DNA of 64,000 nucleotides, from positions 8,959 to 72,958 of the forward strand of contig CAZMTL010000004.1 of NCBI GenBank assembly GCA_964569575.1. Reading direction: 5' to 3'. This stretch comes from an uncultured Gammaproteobacteria bacterium (GTDB lineage Bacteria; Patescibacteriota; Patescibacteriia; UBA9934). Below the pieces are notes generated by a model. That model did not search any database. It worked only from the letters and a program-made list of their open reading frames with translations, and was not told the DNA's origin. Made by a program: the position numbers and the translations under genes. Position 1 is the first letter of the stretch; every line of letters starts with the position of its first letter. Below, piece after piece: positions 8,004 through 60,394 of this stretch.

Positions 8004-8288
8004 CTACGAGTCAAACGTCTCGGTGCGAAGCTCCAACCCGTTCCAAACAGGCTGAAAGATCGCATCGTGATCATTTGATCCCTCGCGATAAACTCCAATC
8101 CGTTGACCTTCGGGAAGGATGATCAACAGCTGGCCCTTACGCGGATCGTAGCGAAGAACTACCAGGCCCTCCACTCCTGTCGACCGAATGATCGCTTCCA
8201 CCCGATCGAGCAGGTGAATGGCGGTACACTCGACACCGGCACGGAGTATGAAGCGGATCTCCCGCTGAACAGACTCTGTCAGACGCAC
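8004..8288 (-). CDS. hypothetical protein (94 aa), GC island A, second gene
   Basis: GTG start overlapping the upstream ORF stop by 10 nt (GAGTGCGTCTGA); GC-rich; no family recognised. Confidence 0.5.
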   Translation of the reverse strand: MRLTESVQREIRFILRAGVECTAIHLLDRVEAIIRSTGVEGLVVLRYDPRKGQLLIILPEGQRIGVYREGSNDHDAIFQPVWNGLELRTETFDS

Positions 8289-8545
8289 TCGCGGAACGTC
8301 GCCTCGTGCATCTGAAGGAACGACTCCAGCGGATCGGGGCTGACGGGCCGAATGGGCCGGCGCACCTTGGATCCATCGATCTCGACAACGATCTCGAACG
8401 ACTCGTCATCGAAGAACACCTCAGCCTCCAGACCGAGCTCGTAGAGAACCCGCTGGACGACGTCCTCGTCGAGCGAATCCTGCTCGAGCAGCTTCACGAT
8501 CACCACTCCAACATCGGCAGACGAACACACGCGCCTTGCGACCAT
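8279..8545 (-). CDS. acidic hypothetical protein (88 aa), GC island A, first gene
   Basis: AGGAGAGG SD four nt before ATG 8545; hand-counted GC3 71/88 (about 81%); no family recognised. Confidence 0.65.
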   Translation of the reverse strand: MVARRVCSSADVGVVIVKLLEQDSLDEDVVQRVLYELGLEAEVFFDDESFEIVVEIDGSKVRRPIRPVSPDPLESFLQMHEATFRECV

Positions 8546-8644
8546 GACCTCTCCTGAAAAACGGCATTATCGCCTCGAAAAAGACAAATATTCTCTTCTT
8601 CAAGCCAACCAAGAATACAAATGCACTCTTGCTAATAACGAAAG

Positions 8645-8686: not shown

Positions 8687-9475
8687 TTACACTCCTAAAT
8701 ACCAACCAAGAATCCATTCTCCAAAAAACATCACGAACACAATAGCGCAGGCCATAAACGTTCCGAATGGTACATGGCTCGAAAGCGCACGCTTCTTACT
8801 AAGCACCAAAAGCAATCCACCAATCCCACCAAAAATATAACTAAACAACAACGCCAACAAACCTAACTGCGGGCCAAGCAAAAACCCCATCAACAACCCC
8901 ATACGCACATCCCCATCACCAACCCACTTCCCTTGCGAAATCAGGTACTGAACGGCAAAAAACGTTCCAATCAGCAATCCTCCCAACACAAACCACACAA
9001 TAGAAGCACCAAGCGCCAAATTGAATATCAAGATAGCCAAAATCGCCGGCACCGAAAACCGATCTAAAATAACCGAAAAACGATAATCATACACAAAGAT
9101 CACCATCAAAAACGACACCACCACAACATCTCGAACAAACAGCAAAATTAATTCGGACGAATCAACGAATTCAGGAATGCCAAACCCAAGCGCCACACGC
9201 AAAAACAACAACGTGGTCAAAATTCCCATTGCAAGCTCGACCGCCGGGTACTGCCACTCAATCACCGTCGCACACGAACGACATCGTCCTCGCAACGAAA
9301 TATAACTCACCACCGGAATCGTATCCAAAAAGGCAATCGGCTCTAAACACGTGTGACAGGTTGATTTCGGTTTTAACAACGCCGCATCTGCCTTTGTGCG
9401 AAAAATAACCACATTCAACAATCCGCCGATCGCAATCCCGAGTAATGCCGAAAGAATAATGCCAAGAACAATCAT
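8687..9475 (-). CDS. pilD: prepilin peptidase (A24 family)
   Basis: Cys-rich N-terminal CHTCLEPI...RGRCRSC, polytopic membrane protein, catalytic-Asp region GDGDVRMGLLMGFLLG; ATG 9475 abuts the pilin stop. Confidence 0.85.
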   Translation of the reverse strand: MIVLGIILSALLGIAIGGLLNVVIFRTKADAALLKPKSTCHTCLEPIAFLDTIPVVSYISLRGRCRSCATVIEWQYPAVELAMGILTTLLFLRVALGFGIPEFVDSSELILLFVRDVVVVSFLMVIFVYDYRFSVILDRFSVPAILAILIFNLALGASIVWFVLGGLLIGTFFAVQYLISQGKWVGDGDVRMGLLMGFLLGPQLGLLALLFSYIFGGIGGLLLVLSKKRALSSHVPFGTFMACAIVFVMFFGEWILGWYLGV

Positions 9476-20104: not shown

Positions 20105-22645
20105 TTAAAGCGTTCGCGGATCCGGCTGTTGAGCTACCGGTTTTTTCAATCCAATTCCCGCTCGTAACATAATATCTTTTTCCACAATCGCCTTCGGTCG
20201 GCCATATTCAAGGCGCGAAATCTCTTTCAACGCATCCGCCAGCTGCGGATTTGGCTTCTCGGGCGATTCTGCCTTAAGCGTAAACGGCTTCGCCTGCGCA
20301 TTATCGATAATCATCTTGGCATTCCAAGTAAACTTATCAGTATTCTGCAAATCGTAGCCAGTAAACGTCGGCTCGAACACCTTCGAAAGAATATCGGTGT
20401 CTTCCGGTCCAACGCGCGCCACGAACATATTTCCAACGTTTCCTAACACTGCGTCTCTAATCTCGGTCTTTCCACCATCTTGAACCAATTGCCCCATGTA
20501 CTGGTGAGCTAATACAAGATTTAACTTATACTTTCGAGCTTCGGAAAGGATCGTTGCAATAGAAGGAGTAATAAAGTTTTGGAACTCGTCGATATACAAG
20601 TAAAAATCTTTTCGCTGATCTTCCGGAATATCCGCTCGAGTAAATGCTGCCATCTGCAATTTTGACACAAGAATCAATCCCAGCAAATTCGCGTTCACAT
20701 CTCCAGTTTTTCCTTTTGCCAGGTTCACCAACAAAATCTTGCCTTCATCCATAATTTTACGAAAATCGAACGAAGAACGCTGCTGTCCGATAATATTTCG
20801 CATCATTTCGTTTTCAACGAATCGCCCCACTTTCGAAGTAAGATACCCCATCATTTCCGACTTGTGATAATCGCTGGTGTTATCCATTTCATCTTCCCAG
20901 AACGATCGCACGACAGGATCTTTAATCTTCGCTCGCCATCGTTGCTGAAAATCCTTATCCGCAACCATACGCGGAATCTCCACAATCGTTCCCGGGTCAC
21001 TTAAATCCGACATCAACGTCAACATGTAGTTTCGCATTTGATGTTCAAACATCGGCCCAATCATTTCGGGCGGGAACAACATGTAAAAAATCGAAATCAT
21101 TTCCTGCACCGCAAAATCGCGCATGTTTTCGTTTGGCGCATCCAACATATTTAACCCCATCGGACGATCCATATCCGAAGGATTAAAGTAAATAACATCA
21201 TCAATTCGGTGTTTTGGAATCGTTCCCAAAATGTCATCAACCAAATCTCCATGCGGATCAATAACCGCAATTCCCTTTCCATTCTGAATATCCTGATTCG
21301 CCATGTAGCGCAAAAAGTATGATTTTCCAGAACCAGTTTTACCGATAATATAGCTATGCCGTCGGCGATCCGCGTCCGTCATAAAAATGTCGGTTCGACG
21401 TCCACGGTACATATTGTACCCAACGTGCAAACCAGACGTAGGCACGCCTGTAGGTGCTGGAGCCGTTCGAGCCTCCATCCATCGAATATTCGGAGTCTCG
21501 GTCGTCGCAAGCGGCAAATGCCACAAGCTCGCCATTTCTTCCGTATTCAAAATCATTTTATACTTTGAATCAAACTGACGGAAAATAAACGCATTAATCA
21601 AACGCGTCTTACGTGGAAGTTCCTTCGAAAATGAATTTCCAAACTCATAAATATTAAATTGTCCGTACGCCTGCAAAATATTGTTCAAATTCGCCTGTGC
21701 TGTCTGAGCAGTAATCCCCGAACACACAATACGCACATTCACCTCCATCGCCGCCTTACTTAACTTCCCTTCAATTCCCTGCAACATCTTGTCCTCGGCC
21801 TGGGACAATCGTTTTTCGGCCTGTTGAGCCTTCAACTTGTCCTGCGAATCCTTCGACGTCACCATTTTGGTCCATCCATCTCCACCCTTCTTCGCTTCTT
21901 CAAACGAAAGACCTTTCTGCATATTCTTCACCACTCGGCGACCCATCGCGCGCCAACCATTACTCACCGGACGAATCATATACTGAATCGCCGCCCCTTC
22001 GCCTGCAGGCACCTTCGAAATAGCGTTCGTGATTCCGTTCAATGGATCCGAATCAAGCTCCTTATACGTCTTAATCGGCAAAAAATTCTCGCGTTTCAAC
22101 TTCAAATACGCCCCAACAATCACCCCTTTTGGTGAAAACATGTTGTAATCCTCGATATGCTCAAACGCGGCATTTGGATACTGAGCATGCATCTGCTGCT
22201 CCATAAATTCCCTCATATACGAAGGAACCGTCATGTAAAACGTAATCAAATGATTGTGCGCAACAATTTCGAGCGCTAACTGATCTTGCCGCCCACGCCA
22301 CCAAGCACCAAACCCACCCTGCGGCTTCTGTCCGCCAATAGCAGAATAAAATGTCTCCGCAATCGCGATCGTCTCCTGTGTATCTGCCAAACGCTCAACG
22401 CCCTTCACGTCATCTTCTGTCTGAAATTTCGGCACCGTTACCATCAATGTAATCGGTTTGTACGCCCCTTCTCCAAGAATATTTTTCTTCTGCGCGTTCG
22501 AACGAAGCAAAAAGACAATAAATACCGTCAATAAAATGAAGCCCAGAACAAACAACGCCAACATAATCACATCGCTCTGCAATGAAGCCTGCGGCAATGT
22601 GCCATTACTTACCAATAGTGACGTCTGCAATAATCCTCCTAACAT
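20105..22645 (-). CDS. membrane-anchored TraD/VirD4/TraG-type (type IV coupling protein-like) ATPase
   Basis: 846 aa; N-terminal TM segment; Walker A IIGKTGSGKSYF; Walker B-like FYLYIDEFQNF; overall coupling-protein/HerA-like layout. Confidence 0.7.
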   Translation of the reverse strand: MLGGLLQTSLLVSNGTLPQASLQSDVIMLALFVLGFILLTVFIVFLLRSNAQKKNILGEGAYKPITLMVTVPKFQTEDDVKGVERLADTQETIAIAETFYSAIGGQKPQGGFGAWWRGRQDQLALEIVAHNHLITFYMTVPSYMREFMEQQMHAQYPNAAFEHIEDYNMFSPKGVIVGAYLKLKRENFLPIKTYKELDSDPLNGITNAISKVPAGEGAAIQYMIRPVSNGWRAMGRRVVKNMQKGLSFEEAKKGGDGWTKMVTSKDSQDKLKAQQAEKRLSQAEDKMLQGIEGKLSKAAMEVNVRIVCSGITAQTAQANLNNILQAYGQFNIYEFGNSFSKELPRKTRLINAFIFRQFDSKYKMILNTEEMASLWHLPLATTETPNIRWMEARTAPAPTGVPTSGLHVGYNMYRGRRTDIFMTDADRRRHSYIIGKTGSGKSYFLRYMANQDIQNGKGIAVIDPHGDLVDDILGTIPKHRIDDVIYFNPSDMDRPMGLNMLDAPNENMRDFAVQEMISIFYMLFPPEMIGPMFEHQMRNYMLTLMSDLSDPGTIVEIPRMVADKDFQQRWRAKIKDPVVRSFWEDEMDNTSDYHKSEMMGYLTSKVGRFVENEMMRNIIGQQRSSFDFRKIMDEGKILLVNLAKGKTGDVNANLLGLILVSKLQMAAFTRADIPEDQRKDFYLYIDEFQNFITPSIATILSEARKYKLNLVLAHQYMGQLVQDGGKTEIRDAVLGNVGNMFVARVGPEDTDILSKVFEPTFTGYDLQNTDKFTWNAKMIIDNAQAKPFTLKAESPEKPNPQLADALKEISRLEYGRPKAIVEKDIMLRAGIGLKKPVAQQPDPRTL

Positions 22646-38457: not shown

Positions 38458-38756
38458 AGATGCTTGTAGAAAGTAGACCTCCCTACTCGCTAAAGATGAC
38501 TTTCGTCACCAACTAGTTAAAAAGAACAAGCGGTTGTTTCCCGTCAGAAAATCTGACAGCTGCCACAAATAATCGCACTACTCAGAGGCTTCTCCGAACA
38601 TCCGTCTTGCGACGGAAACTCTCGGAGAAGTCTCTCTCCAGCGATGACTCATGACAGGGGAAATTTCCCAAAACCACTTGTAAAAAAATACGACGAAAAA
38701 TACATTTCGTCTCAAGGGGCGTGACAGAAGCTAAATTTCCAAACAATCTGGAAATT

Positions 38757-38816
38757 CCCCACTTTCTGCCTCGCTGCTTCCACTTTACCCCACTTCCGCC
38801 CCACCAGCAACCACCC
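38757..38816 (-). promoter_or_regulatory. candidate MraZ operator: five phased (A)AAGTGG boxes
   Basis: CCAC on the plus strand at 38759, 38780, 38790, 38801 and 38811 (spacings 21, 10, 11, 10); minus-strand boxes read AAAGTGGGG, AAAGTGGAA, GAAGTGGGG, TGGTGGGG, GGGTGGTT. Confidence 0.5.
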
Positions 38817-38837
38817 TTCACCTAAACCTGTGGATAA

Positions 38838-38866
38838 TTGACCAAACAAGTTAAAAACGCTACATT
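38838..38866 (+). promoter_or_regulatory. sigma70-type promoter of the GC-rich Nudix-like gene
   Basis: TTGACC-N17-TACATT, about 20 nt upstream of the AAGGAGG SD. Confidence 0.45.
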
Positions 38867-38886
38867 TCGAACGCAAAGGAGGCGTG

Positions 38887-39444
38887 ATGCCTGACGACAT
38901 GGGACGACCAACCGCAGAGGAGATCCTGACGGATGGCGCGTACCTGAACGTGGACGCGGTACGTATGTACGAACTTCTCCAAAGGTGCATCGAGGAAACG
39001 GGAATGCTGCCTCAGTGGTACTTCGAGCACATGCCTCGAGTATTCCCTCAGGCCTGCATCGAACTGGCGGTCATGACCGTCCGATCCGGCAAGCGGCACA
39101 TCTTCCTGCTTCAACGACCAGACAACGATACGCACTGGCCGCGTCAGTGGCACATGCCCGGTACGACACTGTACCCAAAGGACAGCGAAGAAACGATGTG
39201 GAAACGGCTACTGGCATCCGAGCTCGGACAACTCCTCCGGCAAGAGATGTTCCGTCTCGCCTTCAACCACATCAGCACACGAGAAGAACGGGAACGCGGC
39301 GAGTGCATGCACGCCGTCTACACGGGACGCATCGGCACCGCATCGAAGAAGCTGGAACGCTTCGGAACCTTCTTTCCGGTCGATCAACTCCCGGAAGAAG
39401 TCATCCAACACCATCGAACCATACTCACCAGGCTCACCCACTAA
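38887..39444 (+). CDS. Nudix-fold-like protein with degenerate Nudix box, GC-rich copy (island B)
   Basis: AAGGAGG SD then ATG 38887; WHMPGTTLYPKDSEETMWKRLLASELG resembles a degenerate Nudix box; about 40% identity (hand alignment) to the adjacent 39510..40013 product. Confidence 0.7.
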   Translation: MPDDMGRPTAEEILTDGAYLNVDAVRMYELLQRCIEETGMLPQWYFEHMPRVFPQACIELAVMTVRSGKRHIFLLQRPDNDTHWPRQWHMPGTTLYPKDSEETMWKRLLASELGQLLRQEMFRLAFNHISTREERERGECMHAVYTGRIGTASKKLERFGTFFPVDQLPEEVIQHHRTILTRLTH

Positions 39445-39462
39445 GACCTGCGAGCTCCTCTC

Positions 39463-39490
39463 GGAACGCCACCTGGCGTTCCTTTCGTTT
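39463..39490 (+). terminator. intrinsic terminator
   Basis: GGAACGCC-acct-GGCGTTCC followed by TTTCGTTT. Confidence 0.65.
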
Positions 39491-39509
39491 ACAGAATAAA
39501 ATACTCAAT

Positions 39510-40013
39510 ATGAAATCTATTGATCTATCAAACATCATTCTCTCGCTCGAAAAGTACAGCTCAGAAAACAACGGCCAAATCCCACGTGATTGGTTCGAAA
39601 AAATGCCCATCTACTTCCCTCAAGCGGCTATCGAGCTAGGGATCATTAAAGAGATCAATAACTCTCATCACATCTTCCTCGCTCAAAGGCCAGCAGACGA
39701 TCCATATTGGCCCAGCGAATGGCACCTTCCGGGCACAGTCCTCCGCCACACAGACACAGAAAAAACAATTTGGAAAAGACTACTTTCTGATGAAGTGGAT
39801 GGGATAATACAACCTTCCGAAGCAAAACTGATCGATACACACATTTCGAGCAAACAAGATCGCGAACGCGGCGCGTGCGTTCACTCAATCTATCTCGCAA
39901 AAACAAATAAAGACATCAAAAGTGGTAAATTCTTCCCGATCATCGATTTACCGAAAAATACAATCAAGCACCACCTGCCACTCATCGAAAAAATTAAAAA
40001 ATCCCTAAAATAA
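39510..40013 (+). CDS. Nudix-fold-like protein with degenerate Nudix box, AT-rich copy
   Basis: ATG 39510 lies inside track ORF 38985..40013; MKSIDLSN...WHLPGTVLRHTDTEKTIWKRLLSDEVDG; paralog of 38887..39444. Confidence 0.7.
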   Translation: MKSIDLSNIILSLEKYSSENNGQIPRDWFEKMPIYFPQAAIELGIIKEINNSHHIFLAQRPADDPYWPSEWHLPGTVLRHTDTEKTIWKRLLSDEVDGIIQPSEAKLIDTHISSKQDRERGACVHSIYLAKTNKDIKSGKFFPIIDLPKNTIKHHLPLIEKIKKSLK

Positions 40014-40047
40014 CAACGAGGCCCCCGAAAGGACCTCAGCGTCTACT

Positions 40048-40425
40048 CTAGTGGTAGAACTCACGATGCTCGTGCACTGGTAGATCGAACACGAACGGAT
40101 CGTTCACGAACGACACTTCGATCTGACTTCGCAGATCACGAAGAGAACGTTCGAAGACTTCGATTCCACCAATCTGCTCAAGTAGCTCTTGAACATCTGG
40201 CAGTTGCCAACCCGGGAAATCTTCAGTCCAGTCGTCATTCGCTACGGCTGCGTAAAAGCACCACACCGATTCACGCGTACCGAACAGATGATACTCCCTA
40301 CCCTCCAACTCCCCCGTAGCCACGCTCTCGAGACTGAAATACACCAGTTCGAGCAGGTCGAGCATGCTCTTCTCGTGTTCATTCAGCAGCTCCACGAAAT
40401 GCAGAACAATGTGAACCAGGATCAC
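40048..40425 (-). CDS. hypothetical protein (about 125 aa), GC island C
   Basis: GGAGG five nt before GTG 40425 (the track start at 40437 is TTG); acidic, GC-rich; terminator-like hairpin GAGGUCC/GGGGCCUC downstream on the minus strand. Confidence 0.5.
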   Translation of the reverse strand: MILVHIVLHFVELLNEHEKSMLDLLELVYFSLESVATGELEGREYHLFGTRESVWCFYAAVANDDWTEDFPGWQLPDVQELLEQIGGIEVFERSLRDLRSQIEVSFVNDPFVFDLPVHEHREFYH

Positions 40426-40448
40426 GCATTCCTCCAAGCGACAAAAGA

Positions 40449-41944: not shown

Positions 41945-44473
41945 CTACTTCACATTCTTCTTCCTCAAATAAGGCTTCAAATACTGTCCCGTATAACTCT
42001 TAGCCGAACGAGCAATATCCTCCGGAGTCCCTTCTGCAACAACCATTCCTCCACCAACTCCACCCTCTGGACCCATGTCGATTAACCAGTCAGCCGTTTT
42101 GATCACATCCAAATTGTGTTCAATGATCAAAACCGTATTTCCTTTCTCGACCAAACGATGCAACACCTCAAGTAATGTCTTAATATCTTCGAAGTGAAGT
42201 CCTGTCGTCGGCTCGTCGAGTAAATAAAGTGTTCGGCCCGTATTTCGCTTCGCAAGTTCAGAAGCCAACTTCACACGCTGAGCCTCACCACCCGAAAGCG
42301 TATTTGCAGACTGACCTAGCTTCAAATAACCAAGCCCAACGCTCACGAGTGTTACCAACTTATCGTGAACAGAAGGAATGTCCTTAAAAAACTCCGTTGC
42401 TTCCTCGATCGTCATCTCCAAAACTTGAAAAATATTCTTTTCTTTAAATTCAACCTCCAACGTTTCACGATTAAATCGTCGCCCTTTACACACATCACAC
42501 TGCACATACACCGTTGGCAAGAAATGCATTTCGATCGCAATTTCCCCATGCCCCTCACAATGATCACAACGTCCACCCGCCACGTTAAAGCTAAAACGAC
42601 CAGTTTTATATCCACGGAACTTCGCTTCATCCGTCGTAGCAAACAAATCACGAATCGGCGTCCAAGCTCCGGTATAAGTAGCTGGGTTAGATCTAGACGT
42701 TCGTCCAATCGGAGATTGATCCATCAAAATTGCCTTATCGATGTACTCAATGCCCAAAACAGATTTATGAGCACCAGGCTTCCCTTTGCTGCCGTACAAC
42801 TTTTTCGCAATCGCTTTGTAAGTCACTTCCAACATCAAGGTCGACTTCCCGCTTCCAGAAACACCTGTAATACAAACCATGCGTCGAAGCGGAATATCAA
42901 CATCTACATTCTTCAAATTGTTCTCGGTAGCTCCCCGAACCTTAATCGCATCCTTCCCAACCTTTCTGCGCTCGGTAGGAACCGGAATAACGCGATCACC
43001 CCGCAGATACGCCGCGGTCAGCGATTTCTTATCTTCAAAAATCTCGGGCGTTGGTCCGGCAGCAACAATCTCCCCTCCGTGCACACCAGCACTCGGTCCA
43101 ACCTCGACCATGTAATCCGATCGCCGAATGGTATCTTCGTCATGCTCTACAACCAACACGGTATTCCCCAAATCTCGCAACGATTCAAGCGTATTAATCA
43201 ACTGATCGTTATCACGTTGATGCAGACCAATCGTTGGTTCATCAAGTACATACAAAGCACCAACCAAACGCGAACCAATTTGCGAAGCTAAACGAATACG
43301 TTGCGCTTCACCCCCAGAAAGCGTCCCGGCCTTACGATCGAGCGTTAAATAATGCAACCCAACATCCAACATAAACGTCAATCGGCTTTCGATCTCTTTC
43401 AATACGGTTCCAGCAATTTCCAACCCACGCTCGTCTAACGCGATATGTAGAATGAAATCTGCGGCTTCCGAAATCGTTTTCGCTGTGTACTGAACAATAT
43501 TTTCACCACCAATAAGCACACTCAACGCCTCCTTGCGCAATCGCTTCCCATCACACGCGGGACAAATTTCTTCAGAGAAAAGCTCGAGCGTTCCTAACCC
43601 AGTACACGCTTCACAAGCTCCATAGGGACTATTGAACGAAAAAAGTCGTGGCTCGATTTCTGGAAACGAAAATCCACAATTTACACAACTAAATTTAGTA
43701 GAAAACAACCGCTCTTCCCCTGACGCGTACACCACATTCACCAAATCCTGTCCGCGATCAACCGCATTTTCGAGCGCTTCATTCAAGCGTTGACGCGTGT
43801 CCTTGTCCGGATCCTTTAGGCTAACCTGTGGAATAACATCGATAACCACTTCGATCGTATGCTGCTTATAGCGAGAAAGCTTAATTTCTTCACTCAAACG
43901 ATGCATCTTGCCATCTACCCGCACCTTTGCGAATCCTGAATTATACAAATCATACAATAACTGATAATAATTCCCCTTTCGACCACGAACAACCGGAGCC
44001 AAAATTTGAATTTCGCCAGAAGGAATCGCCTTTTCCTTTGCATTTTGCTTCATCAACAAATCAGAAATTTCATCAATCGTTAAACGCTCAATTCTCGATT
44101 TACAATCAGGACAATGCGCCTCACCAACACGCGCGTAAAGAACACGAAGGTAATCGTAAATTTCCGTCACCGTCGCCACAGTTGAACGCGGGTTTCGAGA
44201 ATGTGCTTTTTGATCAATCGAAATAGCTGGTGACAACCCTTCGATTTCGTCTACATCCGGCTTTTGCATCTGACCCAAAAATTGCCGTGCATAAGCAGAA
44301 AGCGATTCGATATAACGACGCTGCCCTTCCGCAAAAATCGTATCAAAAGCGAGGGAAGATTTTCCGCTTCCCGACACGCCAGTAAAACAAATAAGTTGAT
44401 TTCGAGGCAATTCGAGTGAAACATTTTTTAAGTTATGCTCACGCGCACCCTTGATTGTAATTTTTTCTTTCAT
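41945..44473 (-). CDS. uvrA: excinuclease ABC subunit A (842 aa)
   Basis: Starts [17 protein letters not shown]; two ABC ATPase modules ([18 protein letters not shown]) and LSGGEAQR signatures; the 142 upstream codons of the track ORF are read-through of GC-rich DNA. Confidence 0.95.
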
Positions 44474-44480
44474 ATATAAT
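44451..44480 (+). promoter_or_regulatory. candidate sigma70 promoter facing into GC island D (antisense to the uvrA start)
   Basis: TTGATT-N18-TATAAT on the plus strand; it overlaps the uvrA start codon region, so could be fortuitous AT-rich sequence. Confidence 0.4.
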
Positions 44481-45191
44481 TGTTGAGATGTTGATAGCGT
44501 TCTCGTGGTGAGATCGGCGTCGCATCGGCGAAAGGAGGCCCCCATGTCTCGTGGAGCAGTGAACGCTGGACGAACGCGTCCAGCCGAGACCACGCGTCGC
44601 CCGGCAATGCAGGTGCATTGCCGGGACCGATCGGGCGCACGACGCGCTTCGAACGGAGGTGAGCAGTCTCGATCCGTCGTGCCCGGCGTGACCACCTCCG
44701 GAAACGGAGACGGTCGAAGCCCGCGAGCGCGCGAACAGCGCTGCGGTGGTGGTGGGCTCGCGCCCATCCGAGGAGCTTCACCCGACGAAGAGTCCAGGTG
44801 CCCGGGGGCGTCGGAACGGGCGAACCCGGGCACGCCAACGCAGACACGAAGGCCAGCGTCCGGCCGAGGAGGTGAGGAGTCTCGATCCATCACGCCCAAC
44901 TACGCGAGCGATTCCGCAACCGGAAACGCTCGCGAACAGCTGTACTGTGGCAACGGGGGACTTTCCTCCACACCAGGATCTGGACACGACTACCGTGCAC
45001 CGGGCTTCGGAGGCAAGAAGCACATCAAGGACCCTCGAGGAAAGAAGCGCGGCGACAACCCGCGAGGAATTCCGCATCTCCCTCGACGAATTCGACTGCC
45101 CACGCACCCGGGCATGCAATGGACTCCGGCCAAGAAGCCTTAGCCGAACACAATTGACGTACAGACGAAACCCGCCAGGCGATCGTCATCT
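44481..45191. other. GC island D: hairpin-dense GC-rich element, coding status and strand unresolved
   Basis: 43/60 G+C in line 44581-44640; many perfect stems (see findings); all six frames are open over long stretches; no protein-like translation. Confidence 0.6.
44544..45143 (+). CDS. candidate R/G/S/P-rich basic repeat protein (199 aa), island D
   Basis: AAAGGAGG-N5-ATG, open to TAG 45141, terminator 50 nt downstream. Against it: low-complexity translation, and codon-position GC of about 72/73/58% in the first 60 codons. Confidence 0.3.
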
Positions 45192-45221
45192 GCCCTGCAA
45201 AAGCAGGGCCTTTCATTTTTT
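45192..45221 (+). terminator. intrinsic terminator (plus-strand sense), overlapping the uvrB stop
   Basis: GCCCTGC-aaaa-GCAGGGC followed by CTTTCATTTTTT; on the minus strand the same hairpin has no U-run. Confidence 0.55.
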
Positions 45222-47270: not shown

Positions 47271-47435
47271 AACAAAATTGCCCGACTCCACGCTCTACTA
47301 CAAAGTAGATGACGCTTTTGGGATCGGGATCGTTCGTAAATTGTAAAACCAGCATAGCACACTTAAAGAAGAAAACAAAAACGCGCCCCTTCTTGCAAAG
47401 TGAGCGCGCAGCATGCAGTGAAGCATGAATTCCTC

Positions 47436-47645
47436 CTATTCGTCTTCGGTAGTGTGGCGACGATTACCACGAGTGGTGCGGACGTATCCGCGTTTAGAGT
47501 GATACCCGCCGCCATTACGACGGCGAAGTGCCACCAGATCGGTACGCCGACCCTGCGGAAGCACGACAACGATCCGAAGATCATCCTCGCGCTTCTGTTC
47601 CTTGGTCCTACCAACAGGCTTCGAAGCCTTCCGCTTCTTCGCCAT
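47436..47645 (-). CDS. hyper-basic small protein (69 aa), GC island E, second gene
   Basis: AGGAGGTGAGAG directly before ATG 47645; MAKKRKASKPVGRTKEQKRE...RRRNGGGYHSKRGYVRTTRGNRRH; GC-rich stem plus U-run downstream. Confidence 0.6.
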   Translation of the reverse strand: MAKKRKASKPVGRTKEQKREDDLRIVVVLPQGRRTDLVALRRRNGGGYHSKRGYVRTTRGNRRHTTEDE

Positions 47646-47662
47646 CTCTCACCTCCTGGTGC

Positions 47663-47872
47663 TCACAACCACGTGAGCACGTACATCTTCACGCGATGAA
47701 ATGCGCTCGAGCGCACCACCGAGTGGACCACCTCCGGAAGCTGAGGCTCCCAGTACAGGGAGTTGAGCTTGCCAGTGAGCTCGACCGTCCCTTCCAGGAA
47801 CGACCGAACCCGACCGGGCTTGAGATCGAACTTCTCGAGAATGAATCCCGAGATCAAACCCCATAGAATCAT
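47663..47872 (-). CDS. small protein with hydrophobic N-terminus (69 aa), GC island E, first gene
   Basis: GGAGGG four nt before ATG 47872; MILWGLISGFILEKF...; its stop is 15 nt before the next gene's SD. Confidence 0.55.
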   Translation of the reverse strand: MILWGLISGFILEKFDLKPGRVRSFLEGTVELTGKLNSLYWEPQLPEVVHSVVRSSAFHRVKMYVLTWL

Positions 47873-47895
47873 GATCCCTCCAATCAAGACACACC

Positions 47896-47924
47896 ACAGT
47901 ATACCAAAAAAGAGGCTTTGTCAA
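47896..47924 (-). promoter_or_regulatory. sigma70-type promoter for island E
   Basis: Minus strand TTGACA-N15-TATACT with TGG upstream (extended -10), or N17-TACTGT; the -35 sits inside terminator hairpin AGAGG..CCTCT of the upstream gene. Confidence 0.45.
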
Positions 47925-51655: not shown

Positions 51656-53839
51656 ATGCAAGAATTACAGATCAAATCAGCAAAACTTGCTTCACAGGCT
51701 GAACGCAAAGAACAAGTACTCGAATCGATCCTCCTTCCATTCGAGCATCTGCCAGGATCTGTCTTCGGCGTACTCTTTATCGAAGGTCAATTAAATGAGC
51801 ATCGGGCAGAAATGGCGGCGATCATTTTTGAACAACTACAACTACTTCAAGCAATAGAAGCAAGCGCAAACGTACCACGTCGCTTTGAACAGCTTCTTCA
51901 ACAAATCAATCAAGAATTGCAAGTACTTCAGCAAAAAAATCCAAAAGTACAAATCGAACAACTGCACGCCATTTTGGGAACTCGTGTAAAAAATCAACTA
52001 TTTCTAAGTGGAACAGGATTTTTGCACGCGCTGTTCATGCACCGAACAGCACAACAACGCTATTCGATTTACCAACTAGACAAGCAATTACAAGAAGGCG
52101 AATTTAATCCAGAAAAACCATTCATCACCGTACTAGACGGCGAACTACACCCAGGCGATGTCTTCTACCTTTCAACCCCCTTGGATCCAAAAGAAATTTC
52201 GATCGGCGAACTACAAGACATTCTAGTCACACTTCCCCCGTCAGGTGCCCTAAAACGGATAGAACAACATGTTCATCGCGACAAAGGCTATGCAGCTGTT
52301 GCTTTTCAAATTCAAGAACCCGAAACACAAACGACTCACAAAAAAATCAACCCGCTCTCGTCCATCACCGAACTCACCCAAACACAAGAAAAAACAACCG
52401 CACTCTTAAGCGAACAAGGAACTGACGTAGTAGGTCGCCTACAAAAAATGGCACAACCACTAATGAAAAAACTCGCCTCTCCAGGGAAGAACGATACTAA
52501 GTCCGTGCTAAAACGCATCGCGAAAATGTTGGTAAAAGCCCTTCTCTTTGTGACTTCAGTTACCGTCAGCATAGTGAAAACAATCCTAACCGCAATCAAA
52601 AAAGCAATCGAACTCACAAAAGAAAAACGAAGCAAATCTGCCGTATCAAACGATTCAGACGCAACGCTTCCGCAAACCGACGAAGCATCAGACTCAACGA
52701 AGCGTTCGGTGTTCCAAAAAATAGCAGCACTTTCAACGCTACAAAAATACGCCATCGGTGGAGTCATTTTATTAATCATCAGTATCGTAATCGTGCTTCT
52801 ATTTGCCTTTTCTGGAAACAAACAAAAAAATCCCGAAATTGATATAAACGAAACAGCACGACAAATCGAAGAACAAATCAACGCAGCTGAAGCAAGCTTG
52901 ATTTACGGCGACCAAGAACAGGCTCAAAGCTTCCTTACTCAAGCTCGAGCACTTCTAGACAGCATCGAGAAAAAAGAGAAAAACCAAGAAGCAATCGCAC
53001 AGCTAGAACAATCAATCGAAACCATCGAAGCAAAAGCTCGTGGAATCACCATGCCAGAACTAACAGAATTGCAAGGACTAAGCGCAACTCTTGGCAACGC
53101 TCCAGCATCGAACATCATTTATCACAACAACACCGTATTTGTAACAAGCGAAACAAATACCGTAGCGTCGTTTAGCGAATTAAACAATTCGTGGATCAAC
53201 GAAAACGTCACCATCGGAAGTATCGCGGCTTCCAAACGTCTACAAACAGAGGGAGCAAATATTCTCGTGCTAGATGACCAAAACCGCCTCGGACGAGCAA
53301 ACATTACCGCAAAAACGCTCAACCCCCTGGTTTCAGGAACACAAAGCCTGACCGACGTACAAGATATCTTCGTCTACAATTCTTCTGTGTACGCGCTCAC
53401 AAACACAACGAAACAAGTCATTCGCATGCGAGCACAAGGCGAAAACTACGAAGCGGGAACATCGTGGATTACAGCAACGACTGAAGAATTGGGTGAATTA
53501 CGATCACTCGCCATTGATGGATCCGTCTACATTCTAGGACCGGACAAGGTGTACGAATTCCTAAGCGGAAGTCAGCAAGCATTCGCGATCACAAATCTAG
53601 AACCCGCACTAGCAAATGCAACAAAAATCTGGACAAACGAAGCGAGTAATCACCTCTACATCCTAGAAGCCGAACAAAAACGAATCGTCGTACTAGACAA
53701 ATCTGGCGTCGTTGTAAGCCAGTATCAGCACAACGAGCTACAAAACGCCCTAGACTTTACCGTAAACGAGGCAGGAAACACCATTTACTTCACAACCGAA
53801 AACAACGCGTACGCATTTACAGCCGAACACCTTCTTTAA
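51656..53839 (+). CDS. large bitopic hypothetical protein (cytoplasmic N-domain, one TM, beta-rich repeat ectodomain)
   Basis: 727 aa from the first ATG (the track start at 51647 is TTG); TM GGVILLIISIVIVLLFAF; C-terminal repeats of type VYALTN.., VYILGP.., LYILEA.., IYFTTE.. Confidence 0.6.
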   Translation: MQELQIKSAKLASQAERKEQVLESILLPFEHLPGSVFGVLFIEGQLNEHRAEMAAIIFEQLQLLQAIEASANVPRRFEQLLQQINQELQVLQQKNPKVQIEQLHAILGTRVKNQLFLSGTGFLHALFMHRTAQQRYSIYQLDKQLQEGEFNPEKPFITVLDGELHPGDVFYLSTPLDPKEISIGELQDILVTLPPSGALKRIEQHVHRDKGYAAVAFQIQEPETQTTHKKINPLSSITELTQTQEKTTALLSEQGTDVVGRLQKMAQPLMKKLASPGKNDTKSVLKRIAKMLVKALLFVTSVTVSIVKTILTAIKKAIELTKEKRSKSAVSNDSDATLPQTDEASDSTKRSVFQKIAALSTLQKYAIGGVILLIISIVIVLLFAFSGNKQKNPEIDINETARQIEEQINAAEASLIYGDQEQAQSFLTQARALLDSIEKKEKNQEAIAQLEQSIETIEAKARGITMPELTELQGLSATLGNAPASNIIYHNNTVFVTSETNTVASFSELNNSWINENVTIGSIAASKRLQTEGANILVLDDQNRLGRANITAKTLNPLVSGTQSLTDVQDIFVYNSSVYALTNTTKQVIRMRAQGENYEAGTSWITATTEELGELRSLAIDGSVYILGPDKVYEFLSGSQQAFAITNLEPALANATKIWTNEASNHLYILEAEQKRIVVLDKSGVVVSQYQHNELQNALDFTVNEAGNTIYFTTENNAYAFTAEHLL

Positions 53840-53870
53840 AAACAAAGACCCCGTACACGTGTACGAGGTC
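53838..53870 (-). terminator. intrinsic terminator of GC island F
   Basis: Minus strand GACCUCGUAC..GUACGGGGUC stem with one G:U pair, followed by UUUGUUUUU. Confidence 0.55.
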
Positions 53871-53895
53871 CGAGTGACGCCTCAGGTTGAAGCGA

Positions 53896-54681
53896 TCACG
53901 AGTCCGGGCTAGAGGTTCGCGGAAGTCCTGCTGACAGACGGGTCATTACCTCGGGAGGAAACGAAGCTGGCTGATCGAGCCTCATACCTCCTCCGCCGGC
54001 GGTGATACGAAGCCTACCAAGCCGCAACAGACGCAACTCCCGTCGAGCGAGCGCCACCAGACGAACACCGTCTTCCAGATACCCTTCGTAGCGACGAATG
54101 GTGCCTTCGAGCGAAATTCCTTGACGAAGGCACTCAACCACCCATTCTGCGCAGATTGACGGAGGCAGCCGAGGAACACGCGTGAAGAATTCTACGACCT
54201 TCGACCAGTCCATCAGATGTTCCTGGAAGTGCTGCTGCACATGTTCCGGAACCTCCAACAAGGCCGATCGACGAGCGCAGACAGCTGAGACGATGGACCG
54301 GTTGAGCAGATCTTTATCAGCGGTATTCTGACCTGCTCGACACAGCGCATCGATGATCTTCTTCACATACCCAGGCAATTCGCCAGGGTACTTCTTGTGC
54401 ACCCCTGATTCCGCAAGCGCACTCAGAACTGCATAACGCGTCTCCTGACACGGAAGCAGCTTCTCCCACCTACGTACCGCCGAAAGCACCGCACGTCGTG
54501 GAAGCATCGGCAAGTCACACTGTACTGCTCGGGCATGCGCGACAATCACGTCGATGACGTCCACTTCTTCACGCGTCAAAAACCACTTGGTCGACACATA
54601 ACGACGCGCCGAGCGCGCATATTGATCGAGAGCCTCCTTGGCCAGTTGTTCAAGGTTGATCGAAACATCAATCCACTGCAT
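53896..54681 (-). CDS. hypothetical alpha-helical protein (261 aa), GC island F
   Basis: GAGGAG SD nine nt before ATG 54681; GC-rich; no family recognised. Confidence 0.55.
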   Translation of the reverse strand: MQWIDVSINLEQLAKEALDQYARSARRYVSTKWFLTREEVDVIDVIVAHARAVQCDLPMLPRRAVLSAVRRWEKLLPCQETRYAVLSALAESGVHKKYPGELPGYVKKIIDALCRAGQNTADKDLLNRSIVSAVCARRSALLEVPEHVQQHFQEHLMDWSKVVEFFTRVPRLPPSICAEWVVECLRQGISLEGTIRRYEGYLEDGVRLVALARRELRLLRLGRLRITAGGGGMRLDQPASFPPEVMTRLSAGLPRTSSPDS

Positions 54682-59353: not shown

Positions 59354-59953
59354 ATGCGAAAATTTCCAGCTCCAATCCATAACGCTGTCGCAGCACTTTC
59401 GAAACTACCGGGAGTCGGTCCAAAAACCGCTCTCCGGTATGTTTTTACATTGCTACGATTTAGTCCAAACGATCTAGAAACAATCGCTCGCGCCATCGCA
59501 GCCCTTCGCTATATCCAAGTCTGCAACATCTGTCTCACCTATTCCGAACAACAAATCTGCGGCATTTGTAGTGACGAAAAACGTCAAAACACCATTCTGT
59601 GCATCGTATCCGAAGCACGAGACATTTCAACCATCGAAGCAACAGATGCATTCAAAGGGAAATACTTCGTACTCGGTGGCGTACTCAATCCCGTAGAAGG
59701 AAAGACGCCAGAACAGCTGAACATAAAAAAGCTCATCGAGCGACTAGAAATCCAACCCGATATCCAAGAACTGATCTTCGCCTTCTCACCAGACATCCAC
59801 GGCGAAACGACCATCATGTTCCTTTCTCGGCGACTAAAATATCTACAAAAGAAAATGACCCGTCTTGCCCGCGGCCTTCCAATGGGCGCAGACATCGAGT
59901 ACGCAGACGAAGTAACCCTAGGCGACGCCCTACTCGGCAGACGCGAGATGTAA
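59354..59953 (+). CDS. recR: recombination protein RecR
   Basis: HhH LPGVGPKTA, Zn finger CNICLTYSEQQICGIC, Toprim domain. Confidence 0.93.
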   Translation: MRKFPAPIHNAVAALSKLPGVGPKTALRYVFTLLRFSPNDLETIARAIAALRYIQVCNICLTYSEQQICGICSDEKRQNTILCIVSEARDISTIEATDAFKGKYFVLGGVLNPVEGKTPEQLNIKKLIERLEIQPDIQELIFAFSPDIHGETTIMFLSRRLKYLQKKMTRLARGLPMGADIEYADEVTLGDALLGRREM

Positions 59954-59983
59954 AAAAATAAGCGCCCGATCACTCGAGCGCAG
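59954..59983 (-). terminator. intrinsic terminator of GC island G
   Basis: Minus strand GCGCUCGA-guga-UCGGGCGC (one G:U pair) followed by UUAUUUUUU; on the plus strand the same position is a C:A mismatch. Confidence 0.55.
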
Positions 59984-60394
59984 CTACGCAGACCATCGAA
60001 GTACCTCCCCACCTCGAAATACTTTCAGGTCCACAGAATGCCGATGCCGGTCTACCAATCGCAGAGCAAAGCTTCGACCTTTTGGGAAGAAACGAAGTCT
60101 ACTGAGGTACACGGCTGTAAACACGATCTCGAAGTGAGAGCGGTTCACAGCAACCGGAGTCGCACTCCAGCCTTCTTCGTCAGAATCCCGAAACGAACGC
60201 AAATGCTGCGAGTATGCCGCAACAAATCGCCGAAACTGTTCCTGTGAAGAAAGCACCGCAGCGTATTCCCACCTGTCCCCCGGGACAAGTACCGAGATCG
60301 GCAACCGAAGCAGCGCACGCCTCGTAGTCGCCAAGATCATCTTCACATCACCTGAACGCAAGCATCCTCCAACACAATGGTCTACCTCTAGCAT
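59984..60394 (-). CDS. hypothetical protein (118-136 aa), GC island G
   Basis: ATG 60394, or AGGTGA-N6-ATG at 60340; GC-rich; no family recognised. Confidence 0.5.
   Translation of the reverse strand: MLEVDHCVGGCLRSGDVKMILATTRRALLRLPISVLVPGDRWEYAAVLSSQEQFRRFVAAYSQHLRSFRDSDEEGWSATPVAVNRSHFEIVFTAVYLSRLRFFPKGRSFALRLVDRHRHSVDLKVFRGGEVLRWSA

Follow-up and report, generated by a model that had tools for sequence, protein, structure and literature searches.

A tandem pair of variant-box Nudix paralogs between mraZ and uvrC in an uncultured bacterium, with the GC-rich copy as the probable resident

The DNA analyzed here is a stretch of 64,000 nucleotides (nt), hereafter the window, from contig CAZMTL010000004.1 of the uncultured bacterial assembly GCA_964569575.1. 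Between its mraZ and uvrC genes lie two adjacent plus-strand genes, here termed A (38887-39444, ATG to TAA, 185 amino acids (aa)) and B (39510-40013, ATG to TAA, 167 aa), which encode paralogous proteins of the same Nudix fold, both with a variant Nudix box, but which differ markedly in nucleotide composition. We propose, at about even odds, that both are old and intact paralogs of one Nudix subfamily, that A is the resident gene of this slot and B an extra copy equilibrated to the host composition, and that their products use a chemistry of the GDP-mannose mannosyl hydrolase (GDPMH) type. An initial annotation of the same DNA had placed both genes at the right coordinates, and the paralogy, the compositional contrast and the non-canonical Nudix box that it described all stand. 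Its interpretation, that a GC-rich xenolog had landed beside an AT-rich resident and that both proteins might bind rather than hydrolyse their ligand, fares less well: the evolutionary story is probably the reverse, with the GC-rich A as resident and not as recent arrival.

A variant Nudix box conserved across a large family

The products of A and B align with 60 identities over 148 positions (41%) and 65% positives (BLASTP, E 2e-47), close to the hand count of about 58 identities over about 145 residues made at first, and every shared block named in that count is present. At the DNA level, repeats between the two genes are limited to stretches of 32-37 nt at the most conserved motifs, and the fourfold-degenerate sites common to both are saturated, with the same base in 30% of them. 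The protein identities are 41% for A and B, 44% for A and P0002, the single family member at the equivalent locus of a related genome, and 41% for B and P0002. Since the three proteins are about equally distant (41-44%), A and B do not look like recent duplicates; judged by their sequences they are old, intact paralogs, and the grouping of both copies as recent in-genome duplicates with a similar GC content at third codon positions (GC3), which would have spoken against the initial annotation, was not observed. The N-terminus of B is about 18 residues shorter than that of A, and another member of the family, P0005, is similarly short (172 aa).

The fold of both proteins is Nudix, as the initial annotation had supposed. 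A matches the Pfam NUDIX model (PF00293) with 25.9 bits against a gathering threshold of 21.1, and B, with no Pfam match, has a weak hit to the NCBIfam MutT model (E 3e-5). The same Pfam model is reached at E <= 0.01 by 44 of the 84 family representatives, and scores against the NCBIfam MutT equivalog models (17-24 bits) lie below their cut-offs of 97.9-148. AlphaFold2 models built on the alignment of the 84 representatives reach a predicted local distance difference test score (pLDDT) of 93.8 for A and 96.7 for B, with identical topology and with the alpha/beta/alpha arrangement and loop-helix-loop box of the Nudix superfamily. A profile search against the PDB returned Nudix matches only, with 2fml and AraR first, and the best Foldseek matches were AraR, NrtR and MUTYH.

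The Nudix box itself departs from the canonical form in both copies, as first noted. Where the canonical box reads R-E-U-x-E-E, A has R107-L-L-A-S-E112 (RLLASELG) and B has R-L-L-S-D-E (RLLSDEVD), and neither protein matches the full pattern GX5EX7REUXEEXGU. Among the 84 representatives, R107 is found in 83, E112 in 82 and R77 in all, and a hydrophobic residue (L, I or V) replaces the glutamate of REU in 82, while the first glutamate of the EE pair is variable across the family. The resulting family box can be written G-x5-[D/E]-x7-R-[L/I/V]-x3-E-[L/I/V]-G and is accompanied by a set of near-invariant residues specific to the family (E59, R77, D81, W84, H89, P91-G92, D/E99, R137-G138, G160 and P169). 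Every family-invariant residue is kept in both A and B. On this pattern of conservation the box is a conserved variant, not a decayed one.

An exhaustive profile search retrieved 839 representative clusters (50% identity) at E <= 0.001 and 291 at E <= 1e-10, and the genome matches, which include Peribacteria, Daviesbacteria, Saccharibacteria and Uhrbacteria, lie mainly in the Candidate Phyla Radiation (CPR). A and B thus belong to an uncharacterised and unannotated Nudix subfamily, a new variant of a well-known fold. Natural fusions of the family domain are known in P0028, P0033, P0048, P0031, P0065 and P0150: two family domains share one chain in P0031, P0065 and P0150, a family domain is joined to a canonical Nudix domain, with either of them first, in P0028 and P0033, and one type of fusion combines a low-molecular-weight phosphatase with the family domain. 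The idea that A and B represent an ancient conserved pair was considered and rejected, as the halves of the double-domain fusions are not of A type plus B type. Searches of PADLOC and PHROGs gave marginal matches only (best E 0.0065), and a scan of viral contigs for the family and for the neighbouring orphan gene found none, so that nothing points to an origin in phages.

Likeness to GDP-mannose mannosyl hydrolase and the question of catalysis

Among characterised Nudix proteins, the family resembles GDPMH (Gmm/NudD/WcaH; 1RYA, 2GT2, 2I8T), the box of which, RLTMAELG, has the same R-L-x-x-x-E-L-G pattern. The profile alignment with 1rya, although weak in its E-value (2.7e-5), is colinear over Gmm residues 3-97 and free of gaps from the P-G loop to the box. 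It places the family residues E59, R77, D99, R107 and E112 opposite GDPMH D22, R37, E57, R65 and E70, so that the variant box and the equivalents of D22, R37, R65 and E70 are all present, with E59 as a conservative substitute for D22, and it pairs the N-terminal LPxxxFxxxxRxxP...IEL segment of the family, ahead of strand 1, with FLRQEDFATVVRSTPLVSLDF of GDPMH (residues 3-17). In GDPMH, His124 acts as general base, and roles have been assigned to Tyr103, D22, R37, R65 and E70. The family differs from GDPMH in an extra N-terminal helical extension and in invariant residues of its own (D81, W84, H89, R137-G138, P169 and H175/H176); a gene context of colanic acid or GDP-sugar metabolism was not seen, and neither NCBIfam nor Pfam assigns the family to Gmm. 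It is nonetheless plausible, on the aligned residues, that A and B work like GDPMH, though they are not classed as members of it.

With MutT-type proteins (PF00293; NCBIfam MutT) the family has the fold in common, but the glutamate of REU and the first glutamate of the EE pair are replaced in it. With two of the three box glutamates missing in A and B, the initial annotation had suggested that they might bind rather than hydrolyse. In its fuller form this explanation makes both A and B Nudix domains without catalysis that only bind a nucleotide-linked ligand, acting as sensors or regulatory subunits in the manner of CFIm25, of the C-terminal domain of MutY or of the Nudix domains of NrtR and AraR, and we regard it as possible, if doubtful. 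The NrtR/AraR regulators (3GZ5, 3GZ8, 5BS6), the Nudix domains of which, with their incomplete boxes, sense ligands, provide the best Foldseek matches and rank among the best profile matches, and the fusions to a canonical Nudix domain in P0028 and P0033 could represent a regulatory and catalytic pair. These regulators, however, carry a C-terminal winged-helix DNA-binding domain, whereas A and B have no DNA-binding domain and their chains stop at the final Nudix helix (H174-184 for A, H153-166 for B). Moreover, the retained residues R77, D/E99, R107, E112 and E59 are nearly invariant and align with the phosphate- and metal-binding residues of GDPMH, whose identical box pattern is compatible with catalysis. 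The GDP-sugar glycosyl hydrolases are a documented instance of the loss of key box residues with catalysis kept by a different mechanism (PMC5389931). Since GDPMH is active with the R-L-x-x-x-E-L-G pattern, loss of catalysis does not follow from the variant box, and the binding-only proposal is weakened to that extent.

Gene neighbourhoods within the family are variable. The family gene occupies the dcw/uvr slot in three genomes, and in one of these lineages an FdtA-like sugar isomerase adjoins the family gene P0003. A gene for an RRM protein lies near the family gene in three CPR loci (L013, L014 and L015), which could be taken in favour of a sensor and could point to an RNA-related role. The RRM protein has 84 aa (L013 7459-7713, L014 7340-7594, L015 3511-3765), and a fast-evolving GC-rich gene of 147-148 aa lies between the two in L013 (6843-7289) and L014 (6750-7193), with 39% identity. 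Another Nudix gene situated among cell-division and cell-wall genes is that of the Streptococcus pneumoniae UDP-X diphosphatase SP_1669 (4HFQ), according to its description (PMC3655063); the family gene of the window is divergent from mraZ, which precedes rsmH and the ftsL-like gene. The likeness is limited: SP_1669 has canonical diphosphatase chemistry and a low structural rank, and the link to the division cluster concerns only three of the examined loci.

Probable residency of A and the excess of GC3

Locally, four minus-strand genes (iPGM, an ftsL-like gene, rsmH and mraZ) are followed by A and B on the plus strand, an orphan open reading frame (ORF) on the minus strand, and uvrC, uvrA and uvrB, again on the minus strand. 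By its gene content and the relatives retrieved, the host would be a CPR bacterium of Parcubacteria/Uhrbacteria type. The order iPGM-ftsL-rsmH-mraZ-[gene]-uvrC-uvrA-uvrB recurs with a single family copy in a related genome (P0002, in L001, a short version of a 617-kb contig) and in three Uhrbacteria contigs (P0003, in L010-L012). The window proteins are 79-80% (MraZ), 67-74% (UvrC), 55-56% (RsmH) and 44-45% (FtsL-like) identical to those of L001 and L010, and the three genomes are roughly equidistant. Beside these figures, the 35-44% of the family gene is what a protein under weak constraint would show, and replacement need not be invoked. The other loci, with about ten different genes, likewise hold one copy each within +/-6 kb, which makes the tandem arrangement a peculiarity of this genome.

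It is A, and not B, that adjoins the conserved mraZ intergenic region. Several blocks of this region (38458-38886) are conserved with L001 and L010, including CGACTCATGACAGGGGAAATTTCCCAAAACCACTTG and, at 38753-38813, a block that is 75-81% identical to the equivalent regions. The latter block holds repeats of the type CCCCACTT/CCACTT (GTGGGG when read along the strand of mraZ), which are possible MraZ operator boxes ahead of mraZ and of the rsmH and ftsL-like genes. A sigma-70-like promoter found by consensus scan precedes A on the plus strand (38838-38866: TTGACC, 17 nt, TACATT), followed by the Shine-Dalgarno (SD) sequence AAGGAGG (38876-38882, plus strand), 4 nt ahead of the ATG. The same layout is found upstream of P0002, with TTGAC(C/A), a spacer containing AAGTTAA, TACA(T/A)T and CAAAGG(A/T)GG ahead of the ATG, the SD of P0002 (AAGGTGG) standing in the same place. 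In DNA comparisons with the P0002 gene, A matches at 70% over 225 nt and B gives two matches of about 40 nt. Neighbor-joining trees on corrected p-distances joined A to P0002 in 71% of bootstrap replicates with four taxa, against 26% for A with B; larger taxon sets gave 32-46% for A with P0002, and 19% in a run of 35 taxa, while B tended to group with P0005 (39-63%) and no A+B clade was recovered. None of these lines is strong by itself, but all of them agree, and A is probably the positional ortholog of P0002 and B the extra copy.

A hairpin, GGAACGCCACCTGGCGTTCC then TTTCGTTT, follows A (39463-39482, plus strand); it is GC-rich and terminator-like, so that the promoter, SD and terminator initially attributed to A are all present, the first and last of them as consensus matches, of which the regional counts are not above shuffled expectation. 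B starts 27 nt after this hairpin and has neither a promoter-like site nor an SD upstream, on which account the hairpin is probably leaky and B read through. SD-like 4-mers precede only about 6 of the 52 ORFs of the window, a rough figure since starts are uncurated, and GGAGG-type motifs also lie upstream of most GC-rich family members in other genomes.

In composition the two genes part company. The window has 46% GC (0.460), and its other 51 ORFs have a GC3 of 0.45 +/- 0.053; against this background A (GC 0.575, GC3 0.694) stands at z = +4.6, whereas B (GC 0.427, GC3 0.470) stands at z = +0.4, like the backbone, as first described. The genes of the window are nearly all on the minus strand, and third positions are strongly asymmetric between the plus strand (A.39, C.32, G.13, T.16) and the minus strand (A.20, C.11, G.33, T.35). 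A and B were therefore compared only with same-strand genes, their third-position base counts being set against those of five other plus-strand genes by a chi-squared test. A differs from these genes (chi2 58.5, p 1e-12), mainly by an excess of G3, and B matches them (p 0.46). Codon-usage distance was dropped as an outlier test, for the asymmetry turns all plus-strand genes into outliers and does not single out A, and expression-linked codon bias was ruled out as the cause of the GC3 of A by the GC3 of 0.35 in the ribosomal protein L7/L12 gene of the window.

The GC3 of family genes was also set against that of the other ORFs of their own loci. Seven of the ten family genes with such a background, A included, are GC3-rich by at least 0.18, the mean GC3 of the other genes of the hosts being about 0.37-0.62. 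Alongside A (.69 against.45) stand P0002 (.58 against.37), P0005 (.69 against about.48), P0152 (.87) and P0006 (.88), both against about.52 for most neighbours, the Peribacteria copy in L005 (.67 against.49) and P0009 (.82 against.57, from one neighbour); P0004 (.88) and P0007 (.72) are without background. The exceptions or near-exceptions are B (.47 against.45), P0003 (.31 against.40), the Daviesbacteria copy in L006 (.27 against.35) and the Saccharibacteria copy in L007 (.46 against.41). P0152 and P0006 exceed most of their neighbours by about 0.35, and the mean of the locus, in which further GC-rich genes are counted, by 0.25-0.29. The loci L013 and L014 remain colinear across the family gene, and their flanking RND pump genes are saturated at fourfold sites (38% same base, GC.49/.52), while P0152 and P0006 have GC.91/.84 at shared fourfold sites, 19 of their 30 differences being exchanges between G and C. 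As GC is held between orthologs with saturated flanks, the GC3 excess outlasts synonymous turnover: either it is under active maintenance, or replacement from a GC-rich pool has restored it again and again. Being family-wide and persistent, it makes the GC-richness of A no timestamp of arrival, and it is B that breaks with the habit of the family.

A reading of L013 against L014 as allele replacement, from the contrast between the Nudix-like (60%) and RRM (95%) proteins, was withdrawn, the loci being colinear with 74% identical DNA. Other genes with a GC3 of 0.82-0.89 occur in CPR loci of about 50% GC (L014 7705-8748, L015 531-1178 and L013 10788-11246), the very-high-GC3 genes of these loci including GAPDH and a GGDEF protein, and mosaic GC3 seems common in these CPR genomes. 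A more elaborate account, to which we give only tentative credence, would invoke a nucleotide-level constraint that has escaped recognition, or continual GC-rich allele replacement at this housekeeping-flanked locus, with A held GC-rich, B relaxed and the two perhaps forming a heterodimeric GDPMH-like enzyme.

The xenolog explanation, under which A was recently imported with its own signals and inserted beside the resident AT-rich B or is in the course of replacing it, appears unlikely in the light of these comparisons. It draws on the z of +4.6 and the excess of G3 and C3 over same-strand genes, on a perfect SD where few ORFs have one, and on the compositional equilibrium of B, which resembles that of a long-term resident. 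Yet the promoter and SD layout of A and its upstream blocks are also found in the single-copy L001, its nearest relative is the syntenic P0002, and within their own hosts P0002 and most of the subfamily have high GC3, with an excess that persists between colinear orthologs. No candidate donor above 44% identity was found among about 15 billion proteins, a metagenome scan gave only the contigs of P0002, and the locus shows no mobile-element genes or flanking direct repeats. Among the marks of recent transfer, A thus displays a compositional anomaly but neither an insertion into the slot nor an identifiable donor, and the weakly resolved tree leaves room for phylogenetic incongruence.

Several observations nevertheless weigh against A as the resident and against a GDPMH-type chemistry. 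A GC3 of 0.69 in a genome of 46% GC has the look of a recent import, and no mechanism for keeping GC3 high is known to us. Resolution of the tree is poor, with A and P0002 never joined above 71%, and the promoter similarity, of about 60 nt, could also survive if recombination had replaced the coding part alone, leaving the promoter intact. GC-rich DNA does enter this genome, as indicated by further GC-rich islands of the window, of which at least the one at 44451-45200 is absent from the syntenic relative. With regard to chemistry, the GDPMH alignment ends at Gmm residue 97, before Tyr103 and His124, the loop before the G160-x-F-F strand has no histidine in either A or B, and no consistent gene neighbourhood points to a substrate.

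That B is instead a decaying or silent duplicate without a function of its own is very improbable: it has no promoter or SD, a shortened N-terminus, a hairpin between itself and A and no homolog in a word-index search of the protein collection, but the MraZ and UvrC of the same genome are absent from that collection too, which makes the absence uninformative, its frame is intact although divergence has saturated synonymous sites, it keeps every family-invariant residue with a model at pLDDT 96.7, other family members are equally short (P0005), and most ORFs of the window lack an SD.

Neighbouring features, proposed history and significance

The orphan ORF downstream of B (ORF129, 40048-40437, minus strand, up to 129 aa) is located immediately 3' of uvrC and is acidic, with a GC3 of 0.61. 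No homolog of it turned up in Pfam, NCBIfam, PADLOC, PHROGs, the PDB, the loci compared or the viral contigs, and the syntenic relatives lack it. A promoter-like site for it is found at 40477-40449, and a hairpin between the convergent B and ORF129 (40017-40038, minus strand) is terminator-like for that strand.

Five further GC-rich islands were found in the window (8101-8550, 44451-45200, 47401-47900, 53801-54650 and 59851-60350), without sequence similarity among themselves or to A. The island at 44451-45200, of about 750 nt and 60-71% GC, lies between uvrA and uvrB, has no frame with a plausible protein ORF and gives no Rfam match even at E <= 1. Since uvrA and uvrB abut in the syntenic 617-kb relative, where the island is absent, this patch is an insertion, perhaps a structured RNA or a leftover of foreign DNA. 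The other four islands have a GC content of 0.57-0.62; two are apparently non-coding, and two overlap ORFs of 261 and 136 aa with no Pfam match. Elsewhere the window encodes a TraG/VirD4-like coupling ATPase (20105-22645) and a type IV prepilin peptidase (8687-9475).

Taken together, these data suggest a history in which the slot between mraZ and uvrC, from the divergent mraZ promoter region to the 3' end of uvrC, would be the ancestral home, in this lineage, of one family gene. A would be that gene, keeping the ancestral promoter and SD, and its GC3 excess, which most of the subfamily members examined share, would be kept up by some force. B would stem from a duplication dating back about as far as the split from the L001 lineage, or from an old acquisition from a relative, and would have become fully equilibrated to the strand-specific composition of the host. 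The two genes would be co-transcribed, B probably being expressed at a lower level by read-through past the leaky hairpin of A. Both proteins would bind a nucleoside diphosphate-linked substrate through R77, R107 and E112 together with one metal, and would hydrolyse it in a single-metal site of the GDPMH type, not of the MutT type; the natural fusions of family domains suggest that A and B may act as a dimer.

Two consequences concern the reading of composition. Codon-usage outlier tests in this window must be made per strand, and a GC3 outlier lying by an equilibrated homolog resembles a fresh transfer even where, as here, synteny, promoter and family comparison indicate a resident. If the GC3 excess is indeed persistent and not the outcome of repeated replacement, a mechanism beyond the standard models of amelioration would be needed. 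Beyond this locus, the family is large, with its 839 clusters lying mostly in the CPR and unannotated, and its conserved GDPMH-like variant box suggests a non-canonical Nudix chemistry in organisms with minimal metabolism.

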